A stretch of DNA of 64,000 bases, from the IMG/VR virus record IMGVR_UViG_2526164690_000025, one strand, 5' to 3'. The position numbers and the translations under genes are program-made. Below, in pieces: positions 8,888 through 38,787 of the stretch. The notes beneath the pieces were generated by a model. That model did not search any database and was not told the origin of the DNA. It saw only the letters and a program-made list of their open reading frames with translations. Source of the DNA: a virus (taxonomy: Duplodnaviria; Heunggongvirae; Uroviricota; Caudoviricetes). Each line of letters starts with the position of its first letter. Within the stretch, counting starts at the first letter, position 1.

Positions 8888-11262
8888 TCAACTCTCGCGT
8901 AGTCATTCATCAACGGATCATCAATTGACAGTGGTACCGTGCGCATAACGCCCGGCTGAGGCGTGCTGACCTTTACGACAGTTCCCTGGCCTTTCGCCGA
9001 GTCTTTGGTGTGCTCTTCAATCCTGGCAAGCAATGAGGTCATCTGCGCAAACAGCCGCTTCGTTTCACCATCAAGTGAAACGGTATTATCAGCCAACTGC
9101 ATTGTCGGCTTGGCACCGGAGCCGCCAAGGTCACTAATAACCTGTCCGTCTATCTGCATACGACCGGTTGGTTGCTGCAAATCGTTGGCGGCAGTCGTCA
9201 CCTGGGACGTGGAGGCTGGTTCAGGCGCATTATTTTTCCGCATCCCCGGCGAGTTGAGGAGTTTATCGAATAGTCCATCAATCCCCATTTGTGCGCCGAG
9301 CTGGTCAAAGTAACTTGAGTTGTTGGCCACCGGACGCGCCTCTTCAACTGGCATCGGGGTATCAACATACACATTGCCAGCTGCTGTTGCGGTCCCCTTC
9401 CCTCGTGCACGTTCTTCGAGCGTTCCCTGAACGACTTCCCGACGCATACCCCGGCCATTCATGAATTTGTTGACCAGATCGTTAACGCCAACAGCATTGC
9501 CAATTTTGTCTACCAGACCGCCTTTCTCAAACGGGCTATCACCAGGGGTAAACACCAGGCCAGTAGACTGATCGATAACAGCGTTATCAGGCAGTGGTCC
9601 CCTCACTCCATATTGCGCCCCACCCTGTGCTCCTGCTCCAGGTGTATAGATTTCACCACCTAAATAGCGAGCACGATGAGTATTGACCTTGATCGCGTAC
9701 TCACGGTTTTCTTTCGATAAGTCACCTGTGCCTTTTTTCCACTTATTGATAGTGCCAAACCCAGCGTTATATGCAGTGATGGCCTCGTTTAAGTCTCCAT
9801 TGGCTTGCTTCAGATACTTGCTCATGAGAAGAGCCGCAGCTTCTGCCGATTTTTCCGGATTAAAAGAATCTTCCCGGGATAATCCAGTTTCCTCACGAGC
9901 AACGCTCGTAAACTGGAACATTCCGAGAGCGCCACCACTTAGCTTTCCATTTGGTGATCTTGTAAGCGTAGATTTTGCGTTAGGATCACCACCAGATTCA
10001 GTTGCAGCGATCGCGTAAAGAGTACCTTCAGGAAGGCCATATTTATTCTCTAGTTCAGCAAAATACGGAGCCAACTTATCGAGATTTGCCTTACCTTCAG
10101 CGCCAAGGCTTCCGACTTTTACATCTAAGTTGCCATTGTTGTAGGTATCCGCAGCTTTCTGAATGTCATTCCTGGTGCCAGTAGTATTAAGCGACGATGA
10201 TGATGAGCTATTTTGACCAATAGCATTATCAATTTTCTGCAACGCGCGATTGCCCGTTTCTACGGCATTTGCATTGATAATCTGATTGGCAGTTTCTTTA
10301 ACTGTTTTATTGCTATCTTTCGCCGTATCTAGGGATGCATTTACAACACGAGTGACAATATTAGCCTTTTTAGGGGTATATTCAGTCTTAGGAGCATTGT
10401 CCTCCTGACTTTCTTTAGCTGGTGTTTTTAATTCAGGTGTAACCTCTTTCGCATCCGCTTTGTTGACTAGCTTTGATGCAACCCAGGCCACAGGGGTGCT
10501 CTGAACAGCGGCATCTGCAACCTCACCTGAAAGCTCTTTTGCGGCACTCCATAGATTACTGCCAGCCTCTTTAATGTATTTCCCAGGATTCTTAATGAAA
10601 TCAATTGCACTATCAATTGCATCACTGAAAACCTGTTTCAGGTTATCGACAGTAAAGAAGTTTTTGATGGCGTCTAATTTTTCGTTCAGATTCTTTGTGG
10701 TGTCACTGAACCATGCAGAAATAGCATCACCAATCTTTGCTGTATAATCATCGAACTTGGTAGAAATGGTGTCGCCAAGATTAGAAATATATGTTTCTAA
10801 GTTGGTAACCCCGCTATCAATGGCCTGGGCAATACTTTCCGTCGAAAATGATTGCAACATATTGCCGATATCCTCAAATCCAAGTGATTTGAGAACCTCA
10901 CCAATGGCGCTGCTAATACCAGATACCAGTCCCCCCATATCAAGAACATTAGCTAACGTATAAGCGGCTTTTTGCTGGAATGATGGATCTTGTCCTGATT
11001 TAAGCCCAAACGCTCGGCGTTGCGCTTCTATATCATTCCAACCGGTTACCGCATCATAGATACCTCCAGCCACCGTGCCGACTAGCGGAATTGCACGTAA
11101 AGCGCCTTTTGCGACCGCCTTAATCCCTAGTTTCCCTACCCCCTTAATACCTAAAGCGCCGAGTGCCATCGAGCCAACTTTCTTTAGTGCCCCACGGCCA
11201 AAAATAAGGGAGGCAATACCACCGGCCCCCTTCCCTAACAGGCTAAATAATTTGGACAGCAA
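8884..11262 (-). CDS. virion-associated lytic transglycosylase (Sit-like injection/tape-measure protein), C-terminal 792 aa
   Basis: SLT domain motif ...AIAATESGGDPNAKS...GALGMFQFTSV...AYNAGFGTI; Gly-rich N-terminus; adjacent out-of-frame ORF 11292-12215 probably its 5' part. Confidence 0.7.
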   Translation of the reverse strand: MLSKLFSLLGKGAGGIASLIFGRGALKKVGSMALGALGIKGVGKLGIKAVAKGALRAIPLVGTVAGGIYDAVTGWNDIEAQRRAFGLKSGQDPSFQQKAAYTLANVLDMGGLVSGISSAIGEVLKSLGFEDIGNMLQSFSTESIAQAIDSGVTNLETYISNLGDTISTKFDDYTAKIGDAISAWFSDTTKNLNEKLDAIKNFFTVDNLKQVFSDAIDSAIDFIKNPGKYIKEAGSNLWSAAKELSGEVADAAVQSTPVAWVASKLVNKADAKEVTPELKTPAKESQEDNAPKTEYTPKKANIVTRVVNASLDTAKDSNKTVKETANQIINANAVETGNRALQKIDNAIGQNSSSSSSLNTTGTRNDIQKAADTYNNGNLDVKVGSLGAEGKANLDKLAPYFAELENKYGLPEGTLYAIAATESGGDPNAKSTLTRSPNGKLSGGALGMFQFTSVAREETGLSREDSFNPEKSAEAAALLMSKYLKQANGDLNEAITAYNAGFGTINKWKKGTGDLSKENREYAIKVNTHRARYLGGEIYTPGAGAQGGAQYGVRGPLPDNAVIDQSTGLVFTPGDSPFEKGGLVDKIGNAVGVNDLVNKFMNGRGMRREVVQGTLEERARGKGTATAAGNVYVDTPMPVEEARPVANNSSYFDQLGAQMGIDGLFDKLLNSPGMRKNNAPEPASTSQVTTAANDLQQPTGRMQIDGQVISDLGGSGAKPTMQLADNTVSLDGETKRLFAQMTSLLARIEEHTKDSAKGQGTVVKVSTPQPGVMRTVPLSIDDPLMNDYARVD

Positions 11263-11291
11263 GCCGCCCTTCTTTTTCCCGGTGTTTTTGG

Positions 11292-12215
11292 CTATCTGAT
11301 CAAGGGCGCTGAGAATCTTGTCATTGCCCTCTTTAATTTCGCTGGTCTGATCCTGAAGTTCCTGAACCGTCCGTTTTTGGGTGTTAACCTGAACGACATC
11401 GGCACTATTTTGCGATTTACGCCTAAAAAACCTTTTCTACGGCTGTTATCGTCATTGCCACGAATCACATCGGCAATAGACTTTCTGGCACCATTAAGCG
11501 ATCCGCCAACTTCTTTTGATATCCCGCCAAGCTCCTTCCCTGCTGCCCACAATGGACCAGCAACGGCATAACCTAACGCATCGACGGCACGAGTCTCTGA
11601 AGGGTTACCTATGCCTTCAGCTACTTTTGACAATTTTTTTAATAAACCTGATTCAGCATTTAGACGCTCATCATCCTCTTTTCGCCTGGCCTTTTCTGCT
11701 CGTTCAGCACGGGCTTCTTCCGCTGCGGCCTTACTCCCTGACTTTCCAATAAAACGACCACGCGCATCGCGTTGGTTTTGGCTTTTTTGCGCACCGCCTT
11801 TTTGACCGAACATTTCGCGAGCGTGTTCGGCTGCTTCGGTCCGTTGTGCCTTTACATCCTCTGGTATAGCCTTCCTGCGTCGTTTTTTACCCTTTGGTGT
11901 GGTTGATTTGGCCCGCTGTTCCTGTTGAGCAACATCTTCCTGAACTACACGAGAAACGTCCCCTAAATTAAGCCGTTTCATTGCGTCAACAATAGGGTCT
12001 ACTGATGGCGCTTTGGTCACAAAGTCAGGACGTGAATTTTCGATTGTGCGATTTAATGCCGACACGCTGCGAGAGACAGGATCAACAGTAGCAACGCGTC
12101 CCCCTTTCAAATCTTCAACAGCTTCCCGGATACCTGCAAGCTCTTCCAGCTCTTTTGCGCTGGCGGTTTCAACTGTCCTTATAACATCGTCAATGTTGGC
12201 GTTTTTTCTTTCCAT
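11292..12215 (-). CDS. probable N-terminal segment of the Sit-like protein (frame-split)
   Basis: 307-aa Lys/Arg/Glu-rich ORF ending in an implausible tail; separated from 8884-11262 by a frame change near an A6 run at 11425-11430. Confidence 0.45.
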   Translation of the reverse strand: MERKNANIDDVIRTVETASAKELEELAGIREAVEDLKGGRVATVDPVSRSVSALNRTIENSRPDFVTKAPSVDPIVDAMKRLNLGDVSRVVQEDVAQQEQRAKSTTPKGKKRRRKAIPEDVKAQRTEAAEHAREMFGQKGGAQKSQNQRDARGRFIGKSGSKAAAEEARAERAEKARRKEDDERLNAESGLLKKLSKVAEGIGNPSETRAVDALGYAVAGPLWAAGKELGGISKEVGGSLNGARKSIADVIRGNDDNSRRKGFLGVNRKIVPMSFRLTPKNGRFRNFRIRPAKLKRAMTRFSAPLIR

Positions 12216-12296
12216 GATCTTATCGCCTACCGTTTCGGTTTAAGTTTTTCTTCCAGCTTCTCCAACAGGAAAAACGCATAGGATTCAGTGAGCCTT

Positions 12297-13178
12297 TCAG
12301 CGTCCTGAATCGGTATACCCCCATACAAAACCAGGTTGGACACTAAGGTCTGATAGCTTTTCAATCCCCACCTGTGGAATGAAGTCGGTAGCCCGAAAGG
12401 GCACCCACAGACGGGTATACGCACCCTCTGTGGACTCCTTTTTATCTTGGTTTGGGCATTTATGCGGCGGGAGACGAAGACGCATTTCACCTTTATCGAT
12501 GTAGCACGGTAAACCATGTTCGAGCTTTTCATGAGCCAGTCGGATGTGTGCCGCCAGTTTCATAAATTCAGTATCAATGGCCATCCGTTTAATCGTTTCA
12601 TAACGACGCTCAGCCTGATCTTCACGAGTACCGCTAACATCGTTATAAAGCTCACACTGATAAGCGAATTCCCAAAAACGCAAATCAACGATCGCTTCTT
12701 TGAATTCCGCATCGTCTTCAGGTGGCAATGCTGCACGGCGCATCTCCAGCATTTCCATTGCCCAACCATCAAGCGGCACGATACGCCATTGATAAGGCAC
12801 TCCCTCTACAGACACCTCAATATCGTCAATGAAAGGTTCCACTTCCAGGACCTGGATATCTTCAGCCAGAGCATTCATATCGCAATCGTAATAATGCTCT
12901 TTACCGCAATGTTTACAGGTGTAGGTGAATGTCTCGACCGGTGTTTCACGGGAGCCGGTAAATATCCACCATAACGCGGTAATCCGGTCCTGCGCCGTCC
13001 ATGTCAGGGGATCATGTTTCGCGGGTTCAGCCAGCAAGGCTTTTAAATACGCCGTTGTCTGTTGTTCTTGTTCCTCCGGTGTTATCGAGTTGAAACGCAT
13101 CGCATCAGCAATATTTGGCTGACGGAACTGGATCAATTCAGTTGGCCGCGATGGTAGCGGGAAAAGGGGTAAAAGCAT
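12297..13178 (-). CDS. phage structural/morphogenesis protein with Cys-rich motif
   Basis: 293-aa ORF, CKHCGKEHYYDCD motif; tail operon context. Confidence 0.35.
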   Translation of the reverse strand: MLLPLFPLPSRPTELIQFRQPNIADAMRFNSITPEEQEQQTTAYLKALLAEPAKHDPLTWTAQDRITALWWIFTGSRETPVETFTYTCKHCGKEHYYDCDMNALAEDIQVLEVEPFIDDIEVSVEGVPYQWRIVPLDGWAMEMLEMRRAALPPEDDAEFKEAIVDLRFWEFAYQCELYNDVSGTREDQAERRYETIKRMAIDTEFMKLAAHIRLAHEKLEHGLPCYIDKGEMRLRLPPHKCPNQDKKESTEGAYTRLWVPFRATDFIPQVGIEKLSDLSVQPGFVWGYTDSGR

Positions 13179-13192
13179 CCTTGCTCCTTAAT

Positions 13193-13804
13193 TCAAAGAG
13201 AAAAACTAAAGCCCAGAAGGGAAGCCAAAGAACTTGAGGATTGGTTAAACGTGCTGTGCAATGCGAAGGTCATTGGGAATGACTTAAATTCCGTAACCTG
13301 ATCCCGCGCATAGGTGACATCTCCGGTAGTGACCGGGAATACCGTCATCTCATTTTCCAGTTTGGTTAAGCCGGAAGACAGCAACCGATAAATACGCACA
13401 TTGAGCAAATATTTAGACGGTATATTCCCGGTACCGTCCGGATTGATCACCCGACTTTTTGCCGTCTTAAACCAGTCCAAAACGAGGCCATCAACGGTAT
13501 CCCTGACCATCATTGTTATCTGCCCAGGCGAACGCTCCGTTGGTTGAAGGATATTCCCTCCGCCGATTTTAATCGTTTCATATTCGATGCTGTAATCGTG
13601 GTAGGTAATATCTTTGGCAAAGAAGTCTGCCCCCTCCAGTCCATCAACTTCGACAGAGAACTGCCATCCTTGCGCGAACAGCATTTTGTTCATGATGATT
13701 GACGTCAGCTTACCAACTTCCCGCTCACCAACGCCGGAGCCAAATAATGTCGTCGTTAATGCCGAAGATACATAAGACTTTACTGAAGCAACATTAAGCC
13801 CCAT
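13193..13804 (-). CDS. phage structural protein (tail operon)
   Basis: 203-aa ORF, context only. Confidence 0.35.
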   Translation of the reverse strand: MGLNVASVKSYVSSALTTTLFGSGVGEREVGKLTSIIMNKMLFAQGWQFSVEVDGLEGADFFAKDITYHDYSIEYETIKIGGGNILQPTERSPGQITMMVRDTVDGLVLDWFKTAKSRVINPDGTGNIPSKYLLNVRIYRLLSSGLTKLENEMTVFPVTTGDVTYARDQVTEFKSFPMTFALHSTFNQSSSSLASLLGFSFSL

Positions 13805-13814
13805 ATCAGCCCCC

Positions 13815-14422
<608 letters not shown>

Positions 14423-14461
14423 TTGTCATTTGTGACAGTATGCTCGCAATCGTAGTGATTA

Positions 14462-15001
14462 CTACCACCAACTGCTAGCTTTCTTCTCTCTAGCTTTTCC
14501 TTCGCTTTGCAGTAAATCTTTACTTCCTGTAGAAATATTTCTATTTGCATCAGCCTCAGACTGAATTACATCTGTCTTAGCTGCTCTCTCCTTCAACTCC
14601 TGCTCTATAAAATCGTTTTCTCGCTGGACACGAGCCGCTTTTGCTTGCAGTTCGAGTTTCATGCTTTCGAGTTGCAGCTTGCGAAGCTCATCCTCATAAG
14701 CTTGATCTCGCTTCTTGTCATTTGCTAGCTCGGCTTCTCGTTTCGCTCTACGTTCATTTTCTGCAGCAACACGCTGTTTTTCGCGTGCAGCAGCGGCAGA
14801 TGCTGCTTTTTCTCTTCTAATACGTTCAGCTTGTGCTTGTTGGCGAATAAGTTCTTTTCTGGCATCCTCAGCTTGCTGCTCTTTAGCTCGCCCTTCATTT
14901 TCCGCTTGAGCAATAGCAGCAATTTGACTTTGCAACGAGTTAGCCAAGGCAGTGCCTACACTAAACGTAGAAAAGATTAGAAATAAAATAATTTTATTCA
15001 T
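14462..15001 (-). CDS. secreted coiled-coil protein (signal peptide, Ala/Glu/Arg/Lys-rich)
   Basis: N-terminal signal MNKIILFLIFSTFSVGTALA, long charged coiled-coil-like region. Confidence 0.5.
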   Translation of the reverse strand: MNKIILFLIFSTFSVGTALANSLQSQIAAIAQAENEGRAKEQQAEDARKELIRQQAQAERIRREKAASAAAAREKQRVAAENERRAKREAELANDKKRDQAYEDELRKLQLESMKLELQAKAARVQRENDFIEQELKERAAKTDVIQSEADANRNISTGSKDLLQSEGKAREKKASSWW

Positions 15002-15004
15002 AAA

Positions 15005-15526
15005 TTATTTCTTTTCTGGACAAGTAGCATTTGGCTGAATTCGAGTTTCATTATCTTTAGTTGAAATAAGCACAGCAAGCCCCGTTGTAAACTGGCATGC
15101 TTTACCAACTTGAGTTGAAGTGAACACCTTAGTTCCTTCTTTATAAGTCAGTGAAACACCTTCAACAATTGTTTTATCACTAACCAAAGAACCAGCCGCT
15201 GCACCAAGAGCCGCACCACCAGTACCGCCAGCTACAGCACCCAGTGTCGATGTGCCTTTAACATTATAACCGGCAACGCCCCCAGCAACAGCTCCCAGTA
15301 CCGCACCAAATGTCTGTGCCGCTTCTTTATTAGCTTTATTATCAACTTTCACTTTAGCTGGAAGCACAGAGATAATATTGACTGTCTTTGTTTCCTGCTT
15401 CGAATTCAATTGAGCGGTATCATAAACATCGGCAGCATAATCAGCACCGCTAGATTGACACCCAGAAAGAAGAATTGCAGATACAACAAGAGCGCATAAA
15501 GTATACTTTTTAGACATAAGAATCAT
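15005..15526 (-). CDS. lipoprotein with glycine-zipper region
   Basis: Lipobox LLSGC; GAVLGAVAGGVAGY...GAVAGGTGGAALGAAAG glycine zipper. Confidence 0.6.
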   Translation of the reverse strand: MILMSKKYTLCALVVSAILLSGCQSSGADYAADVYDTAQLNSKQETKTVNIISVLPAKVKVDNKANKEAAQTFGAVLGAVAGGVAGYNVKGTSTLGAVAGGTGGAALGAAAGSLVSDKTIVEGVSLTYKEGTKVFTSTQVGKACQFTTGLAVLISTKDNETRIQPNATCPEKK

Positions 15527-15807
15527 TCCAGAAAAACAAAAACCGGCGAGAAGTTACCACGAGAACGGAAAGTAAACAAGAATACTCCCATTGACTTATA
15601 TCAATTAATCAACTTTTTATAAGCTATCCCTAACTTATTGTGTATAGCTGAAAAGTCAGAGACAAGTTCACCATCTGCATTATTTCTTAAGTTAATAGTT
15701 TATTGCTAACTTAATTTATGTATCGACTATTGATATCCATCTTAAAGTTACAATATCCCTCTGCATTATTTTTCATCACAAATAATATATCTATTGCACG
15801 ACACTCA

Positions 15808-15824
15808 TCTGCTCTAATAAATTT
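15808..15824 (+). promoter_or_regulatory. C1-operator-like site (TCTGCTCTAATAAATTT)
   Basis: 15/17 match to P1 C1 operator consensus ATTGCTCTAATAAATTT; upstream of immI-like module 1. Confidence 0.6.
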
Positions 15825-15999
15825 GTATTTTTAAGTGGCGAATGCTATCTTTTCGCATCATATTGACCTTTTAATCGTTCAGGCTTATAGTTCCCGCCGT
15901 CGTAGCAAATTCTGCGACCAGGTTTGACAGCCTGAATGATTGTGCGGACAACCGCAGATTTCCGATATTGCGGTATTTTTGTGTCCGTAAAACCGCGTT

Positions 16000-16085
16000 A
16001 CGCCCAAATTATGGTGGGGCGTGATGGGGAGGCTTCGGCCTGCTGGTTTCACAATCGCCAGTCTGTCAACCCTGTCACGTCCTGC
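16000..16085 (+). ncRNA. c4-like antisense RNA region (boundaries approximate)
   Basis: Structured leader with UUCG hairpin (gaggcttcggcctg) and boxes cacaatc (16050-16056) and ctgtcaacc (16063-16071) complementary to gattgtg (15938-15944; 16122-16128) and gtttgacag (15922-15930; 16091-16099); target box overlaps icd SD. Confidence 0.45.
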
Positions 16086-16139
16086 CACCTGTTTGACAGC
16101 GGGTAGCAGGTTGTTAAACCTGATTGTGAGGCCGTAACT

Positions 16140-16361
16140 ATGGTTAATGCCAATCCTTGCGCACGCCAAGAATTCATCTGGCGTTTCTATTCCTGTAAAA
16201 AACACCACTATCACTTCGTTATCGCAGCAACAGAAGACGAAGCACGCTCTCAATTGCCTGATGGCCCCTGCATTTTCACTGCCCGTTTTTCAACTAACTC
16301 GCGCAATTCACTTAGTTACTGGAACCTCCCCTTCTCTGCCGACGTTCAGGGGGTTTTATGA
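16140..16361 (+). CDS. icd: Icd-like small protein (73 aa)
   Basis: 73-codon ORF with SD gagg 8 nt upstream, immediately preceding and overlapping the antirepressor gene, as in P1 immI. Confidence 0.6.
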   Translation: MVNANPCARQEFIWRFYSCKKHHYHFVIAATEDEARSQLPDGPCIFTARFSTNSRNSLSYWNLPFSADVQGVL

Positions 16362-17394
16362 AAAACCTCTCGTCACCCGTAATGAAATAGCCGAAGCGAT
16401 CGCTTTGCATACAACCTGTATGCCGACACGGGAGATCCCCGGCGCAATTGCCAACTATTTCATGATAACCAGGCGTTTTTATACCCGAACAGATAAGGCT
16501 GTGATCAACAGGCTACTGATAGCCGAGATCAGGGATTATTTGATTGAACAAGGACGTCTACGTTACGCAACGGTGGCAGCAGAAATGAGAAAGGAGGCGC
16601 GCAGAATGACCGGTAATAATTTGAATGTTGAAAAACCAGCACCTGTTGCTTTAGCTACGCCATCACCAACTGTGAATGTTATCTCCAACACTGGAGACAC
16701 AATCGACAGCCAGACACTGTTAAAGATGGTCAATGAAGCGCGTAAGTTATGTGGGGAACCAGAGGTTCGGAACAACAAATTCATCGAAAAAATACTCGAT
16801 GAGCTTGATGGTGAGCACTACACAAAAAGTGTAGTGGAAAAAATGAACAAAACATCAATGCTTGTCATAACCATGACCTACAAACAAGCCCTGCGAGTCG
16901 CCGCGCGCGAATCAAAAGCTGTCCGCCGTTCGCTGATCGACAAACTGGAAGAATTGCAGCAGGCAAACTCCCCTACCCCATCGATCCCCCAAACATTACC
17001 AGAAGCCCTACGCCTGGCTGCCGAGTTGGCAGAACAGAAAATGCATCTGGAACAACAGCTGGTGGCCGCAGCACCTAAAGTCGATTTTGCCGACCGGGTA
17101 TCAGTGGCTAATGGAATCCTGATCGGTAACTTTGCAAAGGTCGTTGGACTTAAGCAAAACGCCCTTTTCTCATGGTTGCGCCAGAACGGCATTCTCATGG
17201 CTTTTGGTGCGCGCAAAAACGTACCGCGCCAACAGTACATCAACGCCGGGTATTTCACGGTGAAAGAAGTGGTGCTGGATGATGAAAATGGCTACCAGAT
17301 ACGGCTGACGCCCCAATTAACGGGTAAAGGCCAGCAGTGGTTAACTCGCAAGCTACTTGATGCTGGTTTGTTAAAACCAGTAGCAATAGGTTAA
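16357..17394 (+). CDS. ant: antirepressor (Ant-like, KilAC-type C-terminal domain), copy 1; start codon unresolved
   Basis: Homologous to 44048-45082 over the whole length; in this copy the ATG overlapping the icd stop (16358) is out of frame by 1 nt; the frame stays open upstream to ATG 16147. Confidence 0.6.
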   Translation, partial: YEKPLVTRNEIAEAIALHTTCMPTREIPGAIANYFMITRRFYTRTDKAVINRLLIAEIRDYLIEQGRLRYATVAAEMRKEARRMTGNNLNVEKPAPVALATPSPTVNVISNTGDTIDSQTLLKMVNEARKLCGEPEVRNNKFIEKILDELDGEHYTKSVVEKMNKTSMLVITMTYKQALRVAARESKAVRRSLIDKLEELQQANSPTPSIPQTLPEALRLAAELAEQKMHLEQQLVAAAPKVDFADRVSVANGILIGNFAKVVGLKQNALFSWLRQNGILMAFGARKNVPRQQYINAGYFTVKEVVLDDENGYQIRLTPQLTGKGQQWLTRKLLDAGLLKPVAIG

Positions 17395-17406
17395 CAAAAG
17401 AAAAAA

Positions 17407-17431
17407 ACCTGCCAGCAAACTGGCAGGTTTC
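17407..17431 (+). terminator. stem-loop after ant copy 1
   Basis: acctgccag-caaa-ctggcaggt followed by ttt; preceded by A7. Confidence 0.4.
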
Positions 17432-17472
17432 TGAGCAGATCGTCCAACCCGATCTGGATCGAGTTAGAAAAA

Positions 17473-17489
17473 TTTGCTCTAATAAATTT
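17473..17489 (+). promoter_or_regulatory. C1-operator-like site (TTTGCTCTAATAAATTT)
   Basis: 16/17 match to consensus; upstream of kilA-like gene. Confidence 0.6.
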
Positions 17490-17558
17490 CGTTTTCTAAG
17501 TGCAAAGAATCACCATTTCGAGCTGGTGATTGAAGGTTGATGCAAATTTGGAGAAAAA

Positions 17559-18359
17559 ATGCAACAAACATTCAATGCGGATATGAATATATCAAACCTT
17601 CATCAAAATGTCGATCCTTCAACCACTCTGCCTGTTATTTGTGGTGTTGAAATTACGACCGACCGCGCTGGCCGTTACAACCTTAATGCTCTACACAGAG
17701 CGAGCGGACTCGGTGCCCATAAAGCGCCAGCTCAATGGCTAAGAACGCTGTCAGCCAAACAGCTCATCGAAGAGCTTGAAAAAGAAACTATGCAGAATTG
17801 CATAGTTTCGTTCGAAGGCCGTGGCGGCGGCACTTTTGCCCATGAATTGCTCGCAGTGGAGTACGCAGGTTGGATTTCTCCCGCGTTTCGGCTGAAGGTA
17901 AACCAGACATTTATCGACTATCGAGCTGGAAGATTACAACCTGCTATTCCGAAGAGCCTCCCAGAAGCTCTCCGTTTGGCTGCCGACCTGGCAGAGCAAA
18001 AGCAACGGCTGGAGCAAAAAATGCTGATGGATGCACCTAAAGTCGAATTCGCCGAACGCGTTGCTACCGCCAGCGGGGTTCTAATCGGCAACTATGCCAA
18101 AGTGCTCGGCCTGGGCCAAAACTATCTCTTCACCTGGTTGCGTGATAACGGAATTCTGATCGCAACCGGTGAACGCAGGAACGTCCCCAAACAAGAATAC
18201 ATATCCCGTGGGTATTTCACCCTTAAAGAAACCGTGATCGATACAAGCAATGGAAGCAGGATTTCTTTCACGACTCGTATAACCGGCAAAGGTCAGCAGT
18301 GGCTGATGAAGCGATTGCTTGATGCTGGTGTGCTGGTACCTGTCGCGGCAGCGCGCTAA
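17559..18359 (+). CDS. kilA: KilA-N domain protein with antirepressor-type C-terminal domain
   Basis: 266 aa; C-terminal region PEALRLAADLAEQK...APKVEFAERV...GNYAKVLGL shared with both Ant copies. Confidence 0.6.
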   Translation: MQQTFNADMNISNLHQNVDPSTTLPVICGVEITTDRAGRYNLNALHRASGLGAHKAPAQWLRTLSAKQLIEELEKETMQNCIVSFEGRGGGTFAHELLAVEYAGWISPAFRLKVNQTFIDYRAGRLQPAIPKSLPEALRLAADLAEQKQRLEQKMLMDAPKVEFAERVATASGVLIGNYAKVLGLGQNYLFTWLRDNGILIATGERRNVPKQEYISRGYFTLKETVIDTSNGSRISFTTRITGKGQQWLMKRLLDAGVLVPVAAAR

Positions 18360-18388
18360 CAGACGTAGTAAGAACCACCAGCATTGTA

Positions 18389-18967
18389 ATGCTGGCTAAA
18401 GTCACTTTCCTGAGCTGTATAACGATGAGCGATTTTACTTTTTCTGGCTATGAATTGGCCTGCTTTGTAACACACTCCGGTCTATCCCGTAGCGCCGGGC
18501 ATATCCTGTCGCAATGTGCAAATCTCGCGGCAACAACCAGTGAATACTTCATTCACAAGCCTCACCGCCTGATCGCGGCAGAAACTGGTTATAGCCAATC
18601 AACCGTCGTTCGTGCATTCCGTGAAGCTGTAAACAAAGGAATCCTGTCAGTAGAGATTGTTATCGGCGATCACCGTGAACGTCGCGCTAACCTGTACCGG
18701 TTTACACCATCCTTTTTGGCCTTCGCACAACAAGCAAAAAATGCGCTGATTGAAAGCAAATTAAAGATCTCTTCAGCGGCAACCAAGGTTAAAGCTGTTC
18801 TCGCTAAGACATTGGCTTTATTTAATTTTTTATCCACACCCCCATGTCAAAATGATACCCCCTCCCCCTGTCAGGATGACGTGGCAATAAAGAATAAGAA
18901 GTCACAATTTAAAAAACAAAAAGATCAGTTTCCGGCGCTGCCGGAACGACCAAACTCAAAAAATTGA
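18389..18967 (+). CDS. HTH DNA-binding protein, possible lytic-replication RepL-like
   Basis: 192-aa ORF with helix-turn-helix-like segment (TGYSQSTVVRAFREAVNKGIL); position after kilA as repL in P1. Confidence 0.35.
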   Translation: MLAKVTFLSCITMSDFTFSGYELACFVTHSGLSRSAGHILSQCANLAATTSEYFIHKPHRLIAAETGYSQSTVVRAFREAVNKGILSVEIVIGDHRERRANLYRFTPSFLAFAQQAKNALIESKLKISSAATKVKAVLAKTLALFNFLSTPPCQNDTPSPCQDDVAIKNKKSQFKKQKDQFPALPERPNSKN

Positions 18968-19233
18968 CTTCATGGATCGCTGAGGCAAAAGCAAAGGCTG
19001 ACAATCTGCGGTTATCCAAAAAACGCGCTCAAAAACATGAGTTCAAGCAGAAAGTAGAGGCGGCAGCGCGGAAATATGCTTACCTGAAGAACAAGCGTTC
19101 TCCTGATATTGGCGGGGTATCAAACTTCGATAATCTGCCGCATTGCATGACGGTAAACGAAGCTCTTAATGCGGTTTTAGCCAAAAATAAAGATAACGAA
19201 CAATGGGGTATACCGGCGGGATTCAGAGGGTAA
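18964..19233 (+). CDS. hypothetical protein
   Basis: 89-aa ORF, non-ATG start implied. Confidence 0.3.
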   Translation: MTSWIAEAKAKADNLRLSKKRAQKHEFKQKVEAAARKYAYLKNKRSPDIGGVSNFDNLPHCMTVNEALNAVLAKNKDNEQWGIPAGFRG

Positions 19234-19401
19234 TGAATTGTTCTAATTATAACCATGCATACTTTCAACGCCTCTAGTTTGCCATGAGGCAAACTCATAG
19301 GCGTCCTGGTAAGAGGGCACTGTTGCCAAAACTGGACGTCCCATTATTGCAATTAATAAACAACTAACGGACAATTCTACCTAACAATAAGTGGAGTTAA
19401 C

Positions 19402-20106
19402 ATGTTGAACCGAAGAACATTTAATGTATTCTGCGATGAATCCTGTCACCTACTAAATGATCATAATAAAGTCATGGTATTGGGTGCGCTTTGGTGCCCT
19501 GGCACTATCACAAAAAAAATTGCTAGAGACATCAAGGAATTAAAATTAAAACACAATCTAAAACCTGATTTCGAAATCAAGTGGACTAAAGTATCTGCGT
19601 CCAAGGTTGAATTTTACTTAGATGTCGTAGATTACTTCTTCAGCAACCCAGCATTGCGCTTTAGAGGTGTTGTTGTTCCTGATAAAGAGCAACTGGACCA
19701 TGCTCGATTCCATCAAGATCATAATACTTTCTATTATAAGATGTTTTTTTATGTCTTAAAAAACATAATAGAAAGTAACAACACATACAATATCTACCTA
19801 GATATAAAAGATACTTTAGGCATTGAAAAAATTGAGAAATTAAGAGGAGTTCTTCACAATGATCGCTATGATTACAATCATGAGTCGATAAACAGAATTC
19901 AACATATACGATCTCATGAAGTGCAACAATTGCAGCTAACGGATCTTTTCATTGGTGCGTTAGGCTACGTTCATCGAGGAATGAATAGCAACGCGGGAAA
20001 AATCCAAGTCATAAACAGGATAAAATCACATACAAACAGGGATTTACTAAAAAGCACTCTTCCAACAGAAAGTAAATTTAATATTTTCGTGTGGGAGGCT
20101 CGCTGA
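19402..20106 (+). CDS. DUF3800-like protein
   Basis: 234 aa; N-terminal FNVFCDES motif typical of DUF3800; AT-rich codon usage distinct from flanks. Confidence 0.5.
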   Translation: MLNRRTFNVFCDESCHLLNDHNKVMVLGALWCPGTITKKIARDIKELKLKHNLKPDFEIKWTKVSASKVEFYLDVVDYFFSNPALRFRGVVVPDKEQLDHARFHQDHNTFYYKMFFYVLKNIIESNNTYNIYLDIKDTLGIEKIEKLRGVLHNDRYDYNHESINRIQHIRSHEVQQLQLTDLFIGALGYVHRGMNSNAGKIQVINRIKSHTNRDLLKSTLPTESKFNIFVWEAR

Positions 20107-38540: not shown

Positions 38541-38615
38541 GATGGTGTAGCTCAGCGGTAGAGCAGTTGGCTGTTAACCAACTGGTCGGTAGTTCGAATC
38601 CACCCACCATCGCCA
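38541..38615 (+). tRNA. tRNA-Asn (GTT)
   Basis: Cloverleaf: acceptor GATGGTG/CACCATC, anticodon loop CTGTTAA, T-loop TTCGAAT, 3' GCCA. Confidence 0.8.
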
Positions 38616-38620
38616 CTTTA

Positions 38621-38707
38621 GGGGAGTTAGTCCGTAGGGGTAGCGGGGTAGACTGTAAATCTACTGTCATTGCGACTTGGGTGGTTCGACTCCATCACTC
38701 CCCACCA
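38621..38707 (+). tRNA. tRNA-Tyr-like (GTA), class II with long variable arm; D-arm irregular
   Basis: Acceptor GGGGAGT/ACTCCCC, anticodon arm GTAGA-CTGTAAA-TCTAC, variable stem-loop, T-loop TTCGACT, 3' ACCA. Confidence 0.55.
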
Positions 38708-38711
38708 CATT

Positions 38712-38787
38712 GCCGATTTAGCTCAGTTGGTAGAGCAGTCGCTTTGTAAGCGAATGGTCAGCGGTTCGATCCCGTTAATCGGCACCA
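38712..38787 (+). tRNA. tRNA-Thr (TGT)
   Basis: Acceptor GCCGATT/AATCGGC, anticodon loop TTTGTAA, T-loop TTCGATC, 3' ACCA. Confidence 0.8.

Follow-up and report, generated by a model that had tools for sequence, protein, structure and literature searches.

How is the antirepressor Ant translated from the first of two icd-ant modules in this stretch of phage DNA, when the ATG at which it would be expected to start is out of frame with the body of the protein? The window, meaning the whole stretch of 64,000 nt that was analysed, is taken from the draft whole-genome shotgun contig AIGH01000015.1 (GCA_000249835.2), of which it forms the first 64 kb. In copy 1 of the module the 3' end of icd reads GTT TTA TGA, and its TGA stop shares the tetranucleotide ATGA with the ant1 ATG at 16358. 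The overlap exists in the deposited sequence, yet it lies one base out of frame with the Ant body. Indeed, the frame of ATG 16358 (ATG AAA AAC CTC TCG TCA CCC GTA ATG AAA TAG) runs for 10 codons and then stops, and the Ant body belongs to an ORF of 415 aa (16147-17394) that is open upstream to ATG 16147, 7 nt past the icd ATG. An earlier note on this DNA had described both the out-of-frame ATG and the open upstream frame, as the sequence reading and the ORF list respectively confirm; it had also correctly described the start in copy 2 as coupled and in frame, with the ant ATG at 44048 overlapping the icd stop at 44051. Three options had been left for copy 1: it might be a pseudogene, its A-run might contain a sequencing indel, or expression might begin at an alternative start that overlaps icd. 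The present analysis strongly favours the indel, finds a pseudogene unlikely and rejects the start at 16147. The elements that meet at the junction are the following.

16140-16361, + strand: icd copy 1, 73 codons, cell-division inhibitor, taken from the ORF list; its counterparts in P1, JL22 and NZ_CP077492.1 carry the annotation icd
16358-16360, + strand: canonical coupled start codon of ant1, annotated as the ant1 start in P1, JL22 and NZ_CP077492.1
16361-16365, + strand: A5 run, which is A6 in all relatives and is the proposed site of a one-base under-call

The copy 1 locus is a classical P1 immunity-I (immI) operon. Over 1.6 kb its DNA is 94.5% identical to P1 immI (AF234172 48343-49731) and 99.1% identical to phage JL22, and it shares with P1 the order C1 operator, a1/b1, C4, a2/b2, 73-codon icd, ATGA-overlapped ant1, internal ant2 and kilA-repL. 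In the P1 record icd spans 48470-48691, ant1 begins at 48688 within the ATGA overlap and the internal start of ant2 is at 48937; icd is annotated there as "apparently required for expression of ant", and the annotation of the icd-ant region of JL22 is the same as that of P1. Sites resembling the C1 operator number 11 in the window, as against 0.3 expected by chance. Around icd and ant, copy 1 contains the following parts.

15808-15824, + strand: C1 repressor operator-like site, 2 mismatches to the consensus ATTGCTCTAATAAATTT, in the position of P1 Oc4/Op51
15885-15938, + strand: a1/b1 target element for the C4 RNA (Rfam RF03163 c4-a1b1, 47.1 bits against a gathering score of 46.7)
16007-16092, + strand: C4 antisense RNA gene (Rfam RF01695, 68.4 bits, E=3.4e-11), aligned with P1 c4
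16050-16056, + strand: b' loop of C4, CACAATC
16122-16131, + strand: b2 target (GATTGTG) overlapping the icd Shine-Dalgarno sequence (SD, GAGG), complementary to the C4 b' loop and annotated as b2 in P1
15938-15944 / 16050-16056 / 16122-16128: b1 / b' / b2 cores
17559-18359, + strand: kilA (KilA-N and KilAC domains), with a C1 operator at 17473-17489 upstream

Alignment of the junction with its counterparts in P1, JL22 and the P1-like plasmid prophage NZ_CP077492.1 leaves a single difference, one missing A, so that the run past the ant1 ATG is A5 in the deposited window and A6 in the three others. In all three the junction reads ATG AAA AAA CCT and is in frame. The earlier note had proposed just such a comparison with related P1-like elements, and A5 was found in none of them. 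A broader survey used a pattern that permits either state, TTATG-A5-N{0,1}-CCTCTCGTCACCCG, and matched 70 contigs in IMG/VR, 2 in GTDB genomes and 29 in metagenomes. The uninterrupted A-run between the flanks was A6 in 100 of 100 relatives and A5 in none (0/100), and the one remaining match has AAAAAG, which is likewise in frame. The in-frame, ATGA-coupled ant start is thus seen in copy 2, in P1, JL22 and NZ_CP077492.1, and in 100/100 of these relatives. The 101-mer of the window around the site was matched by 470 complete E. coli records and 469 PLSDB plasmids, none of them with an exact copy; the best matches are 99.0% identical over a span of 102 nt, and therefore carry the extra A. Among the PLSDB matches listed, CP085518 alone spans 101 nt. 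It was considered as a case of A5 and rejected, as it reads ATG AAA ACA CCT, with T3 and not T4 before the ATG, and its Ant remains in frame.

Adding one A to copy 1 gives a 345-aa protein that starts MKKPLVTRNEIAEAIALHT and aligns with P1 Ant1 from Met1 to the last residue at 93% identity. The KilAC/ANT domain (PF03374) is recognised in the restored protein and in the Ant of copy 2 with nearly the same scores (E=1.2e-30 and 8.4e-31, respectively), and the Ant of copy 1 equals that of NZ_CP077492.1 except at the junction. The second, internal start of copy 1, which aligns with the start of the P1 ant2 CDS at 48937, lies downstream of the A-run.

16366-17394, + strand: Ant1 body with the KilAC/ANT domain, in frame with ATG 16358 after one A is restored
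16591-16608, + strand: internal in-frame ant2 start (SD AAGGAGG at 16591-16597, ATG 16606), on which the indel has no effect

The missing A has company along the contig. The window is 99.98% identical over about 61.7 kb to NZ_CP077492.1, the complete plasmid p88_19539-1 of E. coli O111:H11 88-19539, and over this length, a 1.33-kb insertion aside, they are separated by 11 indels of one base and only 2 substitutions. All 11 indels fall in mononucleotide runs, and the run is shorter in the window at 10 of them (binomial p=0.006) and shorter in NZ_CP077492.1 at one. The rate of discrepancy between the two sequences rises with run length, as listed here together with the ten sites other than the ant1 junction.

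5-mer runs: 2/202 (1%)
6-mer runs: 3/69 (4.3%)
7-mer runs: 4/18 (22%)
Window 1554, 2747, 2749, 6956, 11430, 18916, 22112, 26543, 39861 and 56810: ten further single-base homopolymer discrepancies

Seven genes in all are frameshifted in the window by these indels. The other sites affect RepL, a Sit-like lytic transglycosylase of 1032 aa, a tail protein of 949 aa and three small ORFs; NZ_CP077492.1 has each of these intact. Where other loci cover these sites, their run lengths equal those of NZ_CP077492.1 (6/6, 36/36, 27/27, 3/3, 6/6 and 1/1), and the run length of the window was found in no other fetched locus at the covered sites. RepL, whose gene comes after kilA, illustrates the effect. A tblastn search places a switch of frame at 18913-18922, and the two fragments in the deposit (192 aa and 89 aa) both match PF26868. 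The gene calls in GCA_000249835.2 reflect the same breaks, with Ant reduced to a fragment of 324 aa and RepL given in two pieces.

18389-19233, + strand: repL, split in the window where a run of A7 is under-called as A6 (about 18911-18916)

Base-calling error characteristically leaves such a trace, a ratio of 11 indels to 2 substitutions with the indels confined to homopolymers, biased in one direction and more frequent in longer runs; sequence evolution does not. The window thereby resembles drafts from flow-based or long-read sequencing, in which homopolymer miscalls are likewise confined to runs, biased towards contraction, dependent on run length and far more frequent than substitutions. 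The accession block AIGH01 / GCA_000249835 presumably stems from a 454-era project on non-O157 STEC, an assumption that was given no weight as evidence. The frameshift in copy 1 is very probably a sequencing or assembly artefact, in which an A6 run was under-called by one base in AIGH01000015.1, and we infer that the fault arose during base calling or assembly and not in the DNA. The apparent loss of the start codon is true of the deposited sequence and, on this evidence, is very probably not a biological feature, the underlying arrangement being that of a textbook P1 immI operon in an ordinary P1-like plasmid prophage. As the under-calls in this draft contig are systematic, any claim of a frameshift, a pseudogene or an alternative start in the window is suspect and should first be compared with NZ_CP077492.1.

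A true deletion in the isolate, from A6 to A5, would make ant1 a pseudogene and abolish full-length Ant1; Icd would be kept, as would Ant2 with an SD and an ATG (16606) of its own. Slippage in homopolymers is a genuine route of mutation, decay of such modules does happen, as the annotation of NZ_CP077492.1 marks one of its five icd-ant modules as a pseudogene, and the isolate of the window is distinct from NZ_CP077492.1 (by an IS10 insertion and 2 SNPs), which makes a private mutation possible in principle. A real deletion is nonetheless unlikely, given that none of more than 1,000 relatives shares the change and that it is accompanied by ten other homopolymer discrepancies with the bias towards indels and the strong dependence on run length described above. 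In addition, the companion indels break genes for lytic replication and virion structure, a pattern that fits measurement error and not evolution. If A5 were real, the prophage would have lost the Ant1 of copy 1, kept Icd and Ant2 and come to rely on the differently addressed copy 2, or else a low-level -1 slip on G AAA AAC would restore Ant1; such an outcome is very unlikely.

Expression of Ant1 in spite of A5, whether as an N-terminally extended fusion started at ATG 16147 (or 16261) or through a -1 slip on G AAA AAC, is extremely unlikely. Back to ATG 16147 the Ant frame is open, the icd homologues examined lack stops in their +1 frame, and the G AAA AAC just past the coupled ATG resembles, as far as its letters go, a slippery heptamer. 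However, an open +1 frame is to be expected here, since shuffling the synonymous codons of either icd copy leaves this frame without a stop in 93-97% of cases. The nucleotide differences between copies 1 and 2 fall at icd third codon positions in 30 of 49 cases, and the two copies share 81% of their amino acids when read in the icd frame but 53% when read in the +1 frame. That the +1 frame is open follows from the way Icd is encoded and carries no information. ATG 16147 moreover lies 15 nt from the icd SD, and a search of public gene calls for the 415-aa fusion product found none on record. The alternative start at 16147 was therefore rejected, because shuffled sequences are mostly stop-free, the +1 frame shows no conservation at the level of protein, the predicted product is absent from the records and the relatives have no need of such a start. 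As for recoding, all relatives use the in-frame ATGA start, which implies that there is no selection for it. Transcriptional slippage was also considered and dismissed on general grounds, since 5-6 A's make too short a run for it.

With the under-call accepted as the preferred explanation, copy 1 can be read as a working immunity module. The outline given here draws in part on general knowledge of P1. The real DNA would most likely read ATG AAA AAA CCT, and translation of Ant1 would be coupled to that of icd, as it is in P1. The C4 RNA would be processed from the same transcript and would pair with a2/b2 across the ribosome-binding site of icd; by blocking the translation of icd it would block that of ant1 too, via the overlapping ATGA start. 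Upon failure of this repression, Ant1 and Ant2 would be expected to antagonise the C1 repressor. What the window itself offers in support of this scheme are the sequence parts and their complementarity, and the individual steps are those given for the P1-type system in the P1 annotation and in the literature that PMC8201110 and PMC6906374 summarise. In particular, Ant of P1 binds and inactivates C1, and the expression of ant needs translation of icd (P1 annotation; literature cited in PMC8201110).

A second module of the same kind is present further along the window.

43497-45082, + strand: immI copy 2, whole
43497-43513, + strand: C1 operator, 0 mismatches to the consensus
43577-43629, + strand: a1b1 (Rfam RF03163)
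43697-43782, + strand: C4 RNA (Rfam RF01695, 70.7 bits)
43830-44051, + strand: icd, 73 codons
44048-45082, + strand: ant, 344 aa, ATGA-coupled to icd and in frame
43625-43631 / 43740-43746 / 43812-43818: b1 / b' / b2 cores (approximate positions)

The b1, b' and b2 cores covary within P1, copy 1 and copy 2. Their 4-nt sequences (b1 and b2 / b') are TTAG/CTAA in P1, ATTG/CAAT in copy 1 and TACA/TGTA in copy 2, so that P1 immI differs from copy 1 in its C4 core as well as in the A-run. Since the C4 specificities of the two modules differ, each C4 RNA should act on its own icd-ant only. Judged by these core sequences, the two immI modules on one plasmid should be heteroimmune, as are P1 and P7.

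Both icd-ant modules of the window are also borne by NZ_CP077492.1 (68132-69387 and 40440-41692), which differs in having A6, an intact 345-aa Ant and no IS10 insertion. That plasmid has five icd-ant modules (4409-5745, 7765-9047, 12719-14055, 40440-41692 and 68132-69387), two of which are covered by the window; the 4-nt ATGA overlap is present in all five, and the one ant gene annotated as a pseudogene has an internal stop. PMC6906374 also mentions P1-like plasmids with additional icd-ant modules.

Other features of the window were recorded alongside. A copy of IS10 at 5403-6731, the 1.33-kb insertion relative to NZ_CP077492.1, interrupts a 278-aa gene; it shows a 9-bp overlap of its flanks (target-site duplication) and an Rfam match to RNA-OUT at 5448-5517. 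A match to the Rfam sRNA family IS009 (1011-1209, - strand, 192 bits) lies within the region of a tail-fibre-assembly gene. Finally, a cluster of four tRNA genes on the + strand (38541-38784 and 40732-40804) corresponds to the tRNA-Asn, Tyr, Thr and Ile annotated in NZ_CP077492.1, and such a cluster is typical of P1-like phages.
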